Shown here one piece after another: positions 3,313 through 3,363 of a DNA stretch of 7,660 nt (positions within the stretch are counted from its first letter, which is position 1; each line of letters opens with the position of its first letter). Location of the stretch: the NCBI RefSeq assembly GCF_003334335.1, contig NZ_QOWQ01000072.1. One strand, given 5' to 3'. The position numbers and the translations under genes are program-made. This DNA comes from Escherichia coli (GTDB lineage Bacteria > Pseudomonadota > Gammaproteobacteria > Enterobacterales > Enterobacteriaceae). The notes under the pieces are model-generated. The model saw only the letters and a program-made list of their open reading frames with translations. It ran no database searches and was not told where the DNA came from.

Positions 3313-3363
3313 TAGTTAAATCTGATAACAGGGGCGGCGTCCTGTTGCCCCGGGAGAAAAATA

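Follow-up and report, generated by a model that had tools for sequence, protein, structure and literature searches.

Why should a stable GC-rich hairpin stand in the middle of a phage tail operon, between the gene for the tail tube and the gene for the tail assembly chaperone? The question is raised by a P2-family prophage of Escherichia coli (NCBI RefSeq assembly GCF_003334335.1, contig NZ_QOWQ01000072.1), of which a stretch of 7,660 nucleotides (nt), hereafter called the window, was analyzed; PHROG profiles and RefSeq annotation identify it as the tail-gene region. The hairpin occupies the + strand between the tube gene FII and the chaperone gene E. It is real and is kept across the P2 phage family and, judging from the substitutions its stem has accumulated, it is selected as a sense-strand RNA. 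We regard it as an ordinary operon punctuation mark that probably keeps the mRNA for sheath and tube above the mRNA for the minor tail proteins.

Structure of the FII–E hairpin

The gap between the two genes contains the following elements:

3310–3312, + strand: TGA stop codon of FII
3313–3363, + strand: untranslated FII–E intercistronic spacer, 51 nt (sequence and annotation)
3331–3351, + strand: hairpin (folding and clade alignment)
3352–3357, + strand: Shine–Dalgarno (SD) sequence of E, GGGAGA, with the core GGAG at 3353–3356 (sequence)

The extent of the spacer, bounded by the FII stop codon and the E start codon ATG at 3364, agrees with the initial annotation of this locus, which was made from the sequence alone. 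The spacer is AT-rich outside the hairpin. The stem comprises 8 base pairs (bp), six of them G–C and two G·U, closed by a 5-nt loop: the 5′ arm GGGGCGGC (3331–3338) and the 3′ arm GUUGCCCC (3344–3351) enclose the loop GUCCU (3339–3343), with the pairs G3331–C3351, G3332–C3350, G3333–C3349, G3334–C3348, C3335–G3347, G3336·U3346, G3337·U3345 and C3338–G3344. This stem is both the minimum-energy and the centroid fold (−14.9 kcal/mol), and its pair probability is about 0.99 for the spacer alone and 0.97 in a 280-nt context. A variant in which the 5′ arm GGGGCGGC is replaced by CCCCGCCG, disrupting the stem, exists as a design only.

The initial annotation had rightly noticed a GC-rich hairpin here, but its pairing coordinates were one base too low, and the pairing it named first is negligible. 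AACAGG lies at 3327–3332 and CCTGTT at 3341–3346; AACAGG/CCUGUU folds at −6.9 kcal/mol with a probability of 0.0004 and was rejected as the main fold. The pairing offered as an alternative, GGGGC (3331–3335) with GCCCC (3347–3351), proved to be the outer part of the real 8-bp stem, which is three pairs longer. A switch between two overlapping helices was also considered, as L091 has a similar AACAAC/GUUGUU, and dropped: the two helices differ by 8 kcal/mol, and the clade does not conserve the second one. What had escaped that annotation is that the stem abuts the SD sequence of E, which starts directly 3′ of the 3′ arm. This SD is predicted to be unpaired (probability 0.73–0.94), and in the folding model the AUG of E is likewise single-stranded beside the stem.

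The hairpin has the GC-rich stem-loop of an intrinsic terminator (about 5–14 bp with a short loop) and lacks the accompanying U-tract (about four or more U within 8 nt): none of the eight bases of the post-stem tail GGGAGAAA is T, which bears out the earlier remark that no T-run follows. Nor is it a repetitive extragenic palindrome (REP) or bacterial interspersed mosaic element (BIME), which are defined by a multi-copy dispersed consensus. The hairpin 21-mer is single-copy in the 41-kb host and prophage locus, and the pattern GGCGG...CCGCC occurs there twice against 1.0 expected; a REP-like or otherwise repeated element and a phage-wide GGCGG/CCGCC motif were rejected for this lack of enrichment. 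A search of the whole window with the covariance models of Rfam 15 gave no match at E ≤ 1.

An energy calculation, which the initial annotation had suggested as a check, shows a stable fold that is not significant by energy. The spacer has an energy z-score of −1.47: of 200 dinucleotide shuffles, 17 are as stable or more so, and a hairpin of −13.5 kcal/mol or lower is present in 19% of the 55-nt windows taken from coding sequence of related loci. Since energy alone does not discriminate the spacer from GC-rich coding windows, we turned to a stem-quality criterion, namely 8 or more uninterrupted pairs, of which at least 6 are G–C. Such a stem arose in 7 of 20,000 spacer shuffles (p ~3.5e-4) and in 0.1% of 2,040 coding windows, compared with 59% of 34 distinct FII–E hairpins.

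Conservation across P2-family phages

FII loci were collected from IMG/VR by searching with the window protein and then with an alignment of nine tube proteins, and were complemented by P2, P88 and 18 records spread down the tblastn ranking of a phage collection; E starts in the relatives were placed by search downstream of the hairpin. Across the P2 family, 47 distinct FII–E spacers hold a GC-rich hairpin, often of unrelated sequence. All IMG/VR relatives (FII 31–98% identical), as well as P2 and P88, carry it within about 55 nt of the FII stop, and the 34 distinct hairpin sequences of this set all fold at −10 kcal/mol or below. The element is found in named phages of at least ten genera, among them P2, Eganvirus SW9 and EtG (186-like), Felsduovirus RE-2010 (Fels-2-like), Citexvirus D14A (phiCTX-like) and phages of Klebsiella, Yersinia, Mannheimia, Shewanella, Burkholderia and Ralstonia, and also in Jilinvirus ep3, which is not a member of Peduoviridae.

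Several stem types occupy this one place. GGCGGC/GCCGCC characterizes the clade of the window, whereas CCGGYCAG/CTGGCCGG is found in P2, 186-like, Klebsiella and ep3 phages; phages of Pseudomonas, Ralstonia and Pasteurellaceae have further unrelated types. In P2 itself the hairpin reads CCGGTCAGC-CTG-GCTGGCCGG (AF063097 19381–19401). Loss of base-pairing in relatives had been named in advance as an observation that would speak against the element; instead, pairing is retained in the 47 distinct spacers, with compensatory changes and a bias towards sense-strand G·U. It is these comparative data, rather than the energy of a single sequence, that settle that the hairpin is more than chance.

Covariation and strand selection

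The 27 distinct spacers of the window's clade were aligned with MAFFT. The window stem is in register with the clade consensus GGCGGC/GCCGCC in every column and pairs GGCGGC with GUUGCC, so that two C-to-U changes keep the pairing as G·U, and two outer G–C pairs are added. Standard pairs make up 93.8% of the alignment cells, as against 35–43% in five of six controls in which the 3′ partner was slid and 70% in the sixth. Changes have occurred on both sides in four of the eight stem pairs, the observed covariation score was reached by none of 500 shuffles, and RNAalifold independently predicts the same helix.

The imperfections of the stems indicate the strand on which they matter. Among the 47 distinct hairpins, transition-type imperfections flanked by Watson–Crick pairs comprise 17 sense-strand G·U and a single A·C, while a DNA palindrome or an antisense RNA would predict the opposite wobble bias or none. 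If all were independent, the bias would have a nominal p = 1.4e-4; this value is too optimistic because some wobbles are shared by descent (about 7–8 independent lineages), although the direction is still clear. The window's own stem follows the same pattern, with −13.5 kcal/mol on the + strand versus −8.2 kcal/mol on the − strand. An antisense terminator on the − strand was accordingly rejected, as the conversion of G·U to A·C leaves 5 bp at −8.2 kcal/mol and no − strand gene ends there. Because the wobbles are sense G·U by 17:1 over A·C, the hairpin is, on this comparative evidence, selected as sense-strand RNA.

Organization of the tail operon

The remaining features of the window are as follows:

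1–266, − strand: 5′ part of an ogr/delta-like zinc-finger gene
308–1453, − strand: late-control gene D (PHROG profiles and RefSeq annotation)
1454–1606: divergent D/FI spacer, 153 nt
1514–1531, + strand: TGT-N12-ACA dyad, candidate Ogr/Delta-type late-activator site of the F-operon promoter (pattern search)
1607–2800, + strand: FI, tail sheath (phrog_23 tail sheath, E = 4e-113; RefSeq "phage tail sheath")
2800–3312, + strand: FII, tail tube (RefSeq "phage major tail tube protein"; 48% identity to P2 gpFII)
3364–3744, + strand: E, tail assembly chaperone (phrog_103; RefSeq "phage tail assembly protein"; ATG at 3364)
3693–3699, + strand: slippery heptamer T TTT TTG for a putative −1 frameshift yielding E+E′ (motif, and flank GGTTTTTTG identical to the annotated P2 frameshift site)
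3892–6723, + strand: T, tape measure (phrog_28; RefSeq annotation)
6735–7199, + strand: U, tail protein and final gene of the operon (phrog_76; RefSeq annotation)
7205–7226, both strands: bidirectional terminator-like hairpin AACGCCCTGGTGTCAGGGCGTT (terminator scan on each strand, and folds)
beyond U, − strand: convergent tail fiber assembly gene

This arrangement agrees with the gene context given in the initial annotation, with FI as sheath, FII as tube, E as chaperone, T as tape measure and U as tail protein. Other starts are possible for FI (ATG at 1595) and U (GTG at 6726). The tube family phrog_55 is labeled "head closure" by PHROGs, and many RefSeq phage records repeat this label for the FII homolog; by the RefSeq annotation in E. 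coli and homology to P2 gpFII, its member FII is the tail tube protein. The E+E′ product, 177 amino acids long, aligns to P2 gpE+E′ at 35% identity (E = 9e-28), and by homology to P2 we infer that E/E′ frameshifting also takes place in the window. At this position RefSeq gives a 23-amino-acid "hypothetical protein" (3828–3899) and not the E+E′ frameshift product.

Within the operon, the FI stop and the FII start overlap by one base (TAATG at 2798–2802), the E′ frame ends at TAA 3897–3899 and overlaps the T start at 3892, and T and U are separated by a few bases; the FII–E spacer is therefore the sole untranslated gap of the FI–U operon. The operon would end at the hairpin at 7205–7226, a perfect 9-bp stem that has T-runs on either strand and is located between U and the tail fiber assembly gene, which are 35 nt apart; it looks like a bidirectional terminator at the true FI–U operon end. 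A terminator scan of the window called this hairpin and did not call the FII–E hairpin. With a classical T-run at 7205–7226, this phage would thus use U-tracts where termination is wanted.

The dyad TGT-N12-ACA is matched in the window only at 1514–1531 and 7260–7277, which is not above chance (2 matches versus 1.65 expected). The former is the sole such dyad near the operon, and its placement agrees with the P2 record, in which the activator site precedes FI by about 70 nt; it is taken here as a putative promoter element. The promoter scan and pattern search found neither a sigma-70-like site on the + strand nor a TGT-N12-ACA before E, and the proposal that the hairpin holds an Ogr-type activator site or an internal promoter was rejected on the same grounds. 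As the sole nearby activator site is upstream of FI and no promoter signal precedes E, polymerase has to pass the hairpin to reach E, T and U.

In the window and in P88, gene D and FI diverge, whereas in P2 gene D follows U. In the 153-nt D/FI spacer the dyad at 1514–1531 lies about 55 bp from plausible start sites on either side, and this single dyad might serve two divergent late promoters. At the prophage end, a hok/gef toxin gene stands beside the ogr/delta-like zinc-finger gene (L016 16894–17164, just left of the window). The 130-nt hok–ogr spacer folds at −56.8 kcal/mol on the + strand and is possibly a hok mRNA/Sok region.

Of 5,426 complete E. coli genomes, only 14 have a near-identical copy of the window, and NZ_CM129862 matches it at 100% identity. 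The closest cultured phages are P88-type Xuanwuviruses, at about 67% nucleotide identity.

Proposed role and rival explanations

We give roughly even credence to a reading in which the sense-strand stem-loop punctuates the operon, separating PF-FI-FII from E/E′-T-U, and acts as a putative mRNA decay barrier, perhaps with weak termination, that enriches FI-FII over E-T-U mRNA. RNA polymerase would start at the Ogr/Delta-activated promoter upstream of FI and transcribe across the spacer, where the 8-bp GC-rich hairpin would form just after the tube gene. Without a U-tract, most polymerases would continue, so that E, T and U would come from the same transcript; such read-through fits the absence of a promoter signal before E. 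The long mRNA would then be cut downstream, e.g., in the A/U-rich and weakly translated E initiation region directly 3′ of the stem, and 3′-to-5′ exonucleases such as polynucleotide phosphorylase (PNPase) and RNase II would degrade back and stall at the hairpin. A stable FI-FII message would persist while the distal E-T-U part decays, and weak pausing or termination at the stem, if present, would act in the same direction. As a result, the sheath and tube, needed in about 200 copies, would be served by more mRNA than the chaperone, the tape measure and the tail-tip proteins. Two features expected of an intercistronic stabilizer are present, a stable stem-loop in an untranslated gap 3′ of FI-FII and selection as sense RNA. 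Both a barrier to decay at the stem and a resulting shift of expression ratios are themselves inferred. The initial annotation had proposed an attenuator that favors FI and FII over the genes behind them; its placement fits such punctuation, while attenuation in the sense of termination is the less likely half of the idea, given that no T follows the stem.

Several points weigh against a decay barrier, and they lead to the other readings. Translation efficiency alone could set the stoichiometry, and the literature searched contained no report of a coverage step-down or of 3′ ends at this hairpin in any P2-like phage. The hairpin is absent from 2F_1 and Haematospirillum, and from Arsenophonus and an 18-kb pyocin-like Pseudomonas element, the last two with spacers of 14 nt. 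In some relatives the stem is followed by a U-tract (at least 4 T of 8 in 6 of 47), and the ancestral role may for that reason be termination and not decay protection. Mannheimia, Shewanella, D14A, ep3 and L008/L009 carry hairpin and T-run at the homologous position; for Mannheimia phage 535AP1 the hairpin carries an annotation as rho-independent terminator, made with TransTermHP, and termination may be the actual mechanism in such U-tract relatives. The main rival, a leaky intrinsic terminator or pause site at which some RNA polymerases stop or pause after FII and fewer transcripts reach E-T-U, would moreover suit a GC-rich stem-loop directly after a highly expressed gene, and inefficient terminators, mapped as read-through sites by ONT-cappable-seq, are a documented phage strategy by which weak termination balances expression (PMC9163698). 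For the window, however, we consider this explanation unlikely. Efficient termination by E. coli RNA polymerase needs a U-tract, and a canonical intrinsic terminator is improbable here because none of the eight bases of GGGAGAAA is T; at least 5 T of 8 occur in only 3 of the 47 distinct relatives; the scan that called 7205–7226 missed the FII–E hairpin; and E, T and U are essential tail genes without a promoter of their own.

The position of the hairpin is the other objection to a decay barrier, as it suggests an element that serves E: an SD-locked hairpin insulating the E ribosome-binding site and setting modest translation, or a 5′ hairpin that, once the AU-rich part of the spacer is cut, shields E-T-U RNA from RNase E. 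The window stem starts 18 nt after the FII stop and abuts the E SD. Throughout its clade the distance from stem end to E start is fixed at 11–15 nt, while that from FII stop to stem varies between 10 and 32 nt, and in nearly all distinct sequences the stem ends 0–1 nt before (C/T/A/G)GGAG; both SD and AUG are predicted to be single-stranded beside it. In L066 (2014–2125) the FII–E spacer is 112 nt long and has three hairpins, two near the FII stop and one abutting the E SD, so that the SD-adjacent hairpin is retained beside stop-proximal ones. Mosaic exchange points the same way. From FI through the FII stop, and again from 3768, L002 and L005 share about 87% identity with the window; between these breakpoints (window 3314–3767) they carry a non-homologous spacer and E cassette. 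Each of the two cassettes opens with a hairpin and then GGAG, and the left breakpoint coincides exactly with the FII stop codon. The hairpin was therefore kept through the module swap and belongs to the E side of the breakpoint. The fixed distance to E and the co-exchange with E point at least equally to a role for E.

In its strongest form this explanation describes a hairpin–SD module (GGCGGC-loop-GCCGCC, then GGAG, 13–14 nt before the AUG) that is inherited and exchanged with E and not with FII, whose main job would be control of E/E+E′ synthesis or capping of a processed E-T-U 5′ end; the stop-proximal hairpin of P2 type would be a separate solution, and L066 would have both. We regard a service to E, in general and in this form, as a rather doubtful proposal. 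In P2, 186-like, Fels-2-like, phiCTX-like, Burkholderia and Ralstonia phages the hairpin is stop-proximal and not at the SD, lying 5–12 nt after the FII stop and 24–33 nt before the E start. In the P88 group, which broadly belongs to the window's clade, about 10 nt separate stem and SD, and the analogous hairpin after the capsid gene (see below) is also 10 nt from the next SD. The fixed spacing may be mere inheritance, since two constrained elements leave no space for indels between them.

Two further explanations have much less in their favor. That the hairpin is a chance or hitch-hiking GC-rich palindrome without function would agree with its z-score of −1.47, with the 19% of coding windows that reach the same energy and with the lack of an Rfam match. 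It is nevertheless very improbable in view of the 47 distinct spacers with differing sequences, the compensatory changes, the G·U strand bias and the stem-quality p ~3.5e-4. A DNA-level element, either a palindrome bound by protein, such as a late-activator site or an internal promoter, or a signal that marks recombination or a module boundary, could be suspected from the mosaic breakpoint located here and from ACA-N12-TGT at 3328–3345, which superficially resembles an activator dyad. However, the Ogr-type dyad, expected about 55 bp upstream of a late transcription start, is TGT-N12-ACA, with its only matches at the two sites given above, the ACA-N12-TGT motif is not conserved in relatives, and no promoter-like site is nearby. 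Stems that covary though their sequence has been replaced, and 17 G·U to 1 A·C, are unexpected for a DNA palindrome; the strand asymmetry largely refutes a DNA-level role, to which we attach next to no credence.

Relation to known elements

Elements of this kind are well known, as intercistronic stem-loops or as leaky terminators after an abundant structural gene. Intercistronic stem-loops that stabilize mRNA include REP sequences in malE-malF and the puf operon hairpins of Rhodobacter, which act as barriers to 3′ exonucleases; Newbury and colleagues reportedly described in 1987 that REP-type stem-loops stabilize upstream cistrons in malE-malF. Like these, the window's hairpin is a stable stem-loop without a U-tract, in an untranslated gap downstream of a cistron needed in excess. 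Unlike REP, it is single-copy in 41 kb, unrelated in sequence and phage-borne, and an exonuclease-barrier action is here only proposed.

The T7 terminator T-phi after gene 10 is an inefficient terminator after an abundant structural gene. Like it and the ONT-cappable-seq sites, the hairpin follows the most abundant structural gene and is internal to a longer transcription unit, but the stem stands without any U-tract, the defining second half of such terminators. The 3′ hairpin of the RiboJ insulator is comparable in being directly upstream of a ribosome-binding site (0–1 nt from the SD in the window's clade, with the SD predicted to be single-stranded). The likeness is positional only, as the window's hairpin is natural and no ribozyme or processing site is known for it.

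The nearest counterparts are the hairpins of P2, 186-, Fels-2- and phiCTX-type phages, which share the place in the operon, a 51–62 nt spacer after the tube gene, a GC-rich stem of 7–10 bp, a short loop, sense-strand G·U pairs and usually the lack of a U-tract. The P2 hairpin differs in its unrelated stem sequence and in its position, as it begins 7 nt downstream of the stop and its end is 28 nt upstream of the E start. The GenBank record of P2 annotates the F-operon activator site, transcription start and terminator, and no feature in the FII–E spacer. No full text was found on this hairpin or on the mapping of P2-family late transcripts, though Temple et al. (1991) or Christie et al. (2002) may mention it; on hairpins behind major capsid and tail genes of phages in general, the literature search gave one unrelated review. 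The family-wide conservation at the FII–E site and the two geometries, stop-proximal and SD-adjacent, appear undescribed.

A similar hairpin after the capsid gene

The same prophage has another U-tract-less hairpin, GGCGGGCA-CATG-TGCCCGCC, after the major capsid gene N (L016 35641–35689, − strand). It is located 8 nt after N and 10 nt before the gpM SD. Further along, the M–L spacer (L016 34723–34830) folds at −48.6 kcal/mol. The generalization that P2-like phages have a hairpin behind each abundant structural gene was considered and proved only partly true: the hairpin after N is not family-wide, because the N–M gap of P2 is only 3 nt.

Significance for P2-like phages

The general understanding of phage gene expression is unchanged by this finding. 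Within the family, the FII–E hairpin offers a landmark for annotating P2-like tail operons, though it is unannotated in the P2 reference record itself. The occurrence of natural U-tract-less and U-tract-bearing variants at one homologous site could serve to separate termination from decay protection. If the decay-barrier reading is true, a single promoter would set a more than 30-fold difference in demand between sheath and tube on one side and chaperone, tape measure and tail tip on the other, without a second promoter or a strong terminator.

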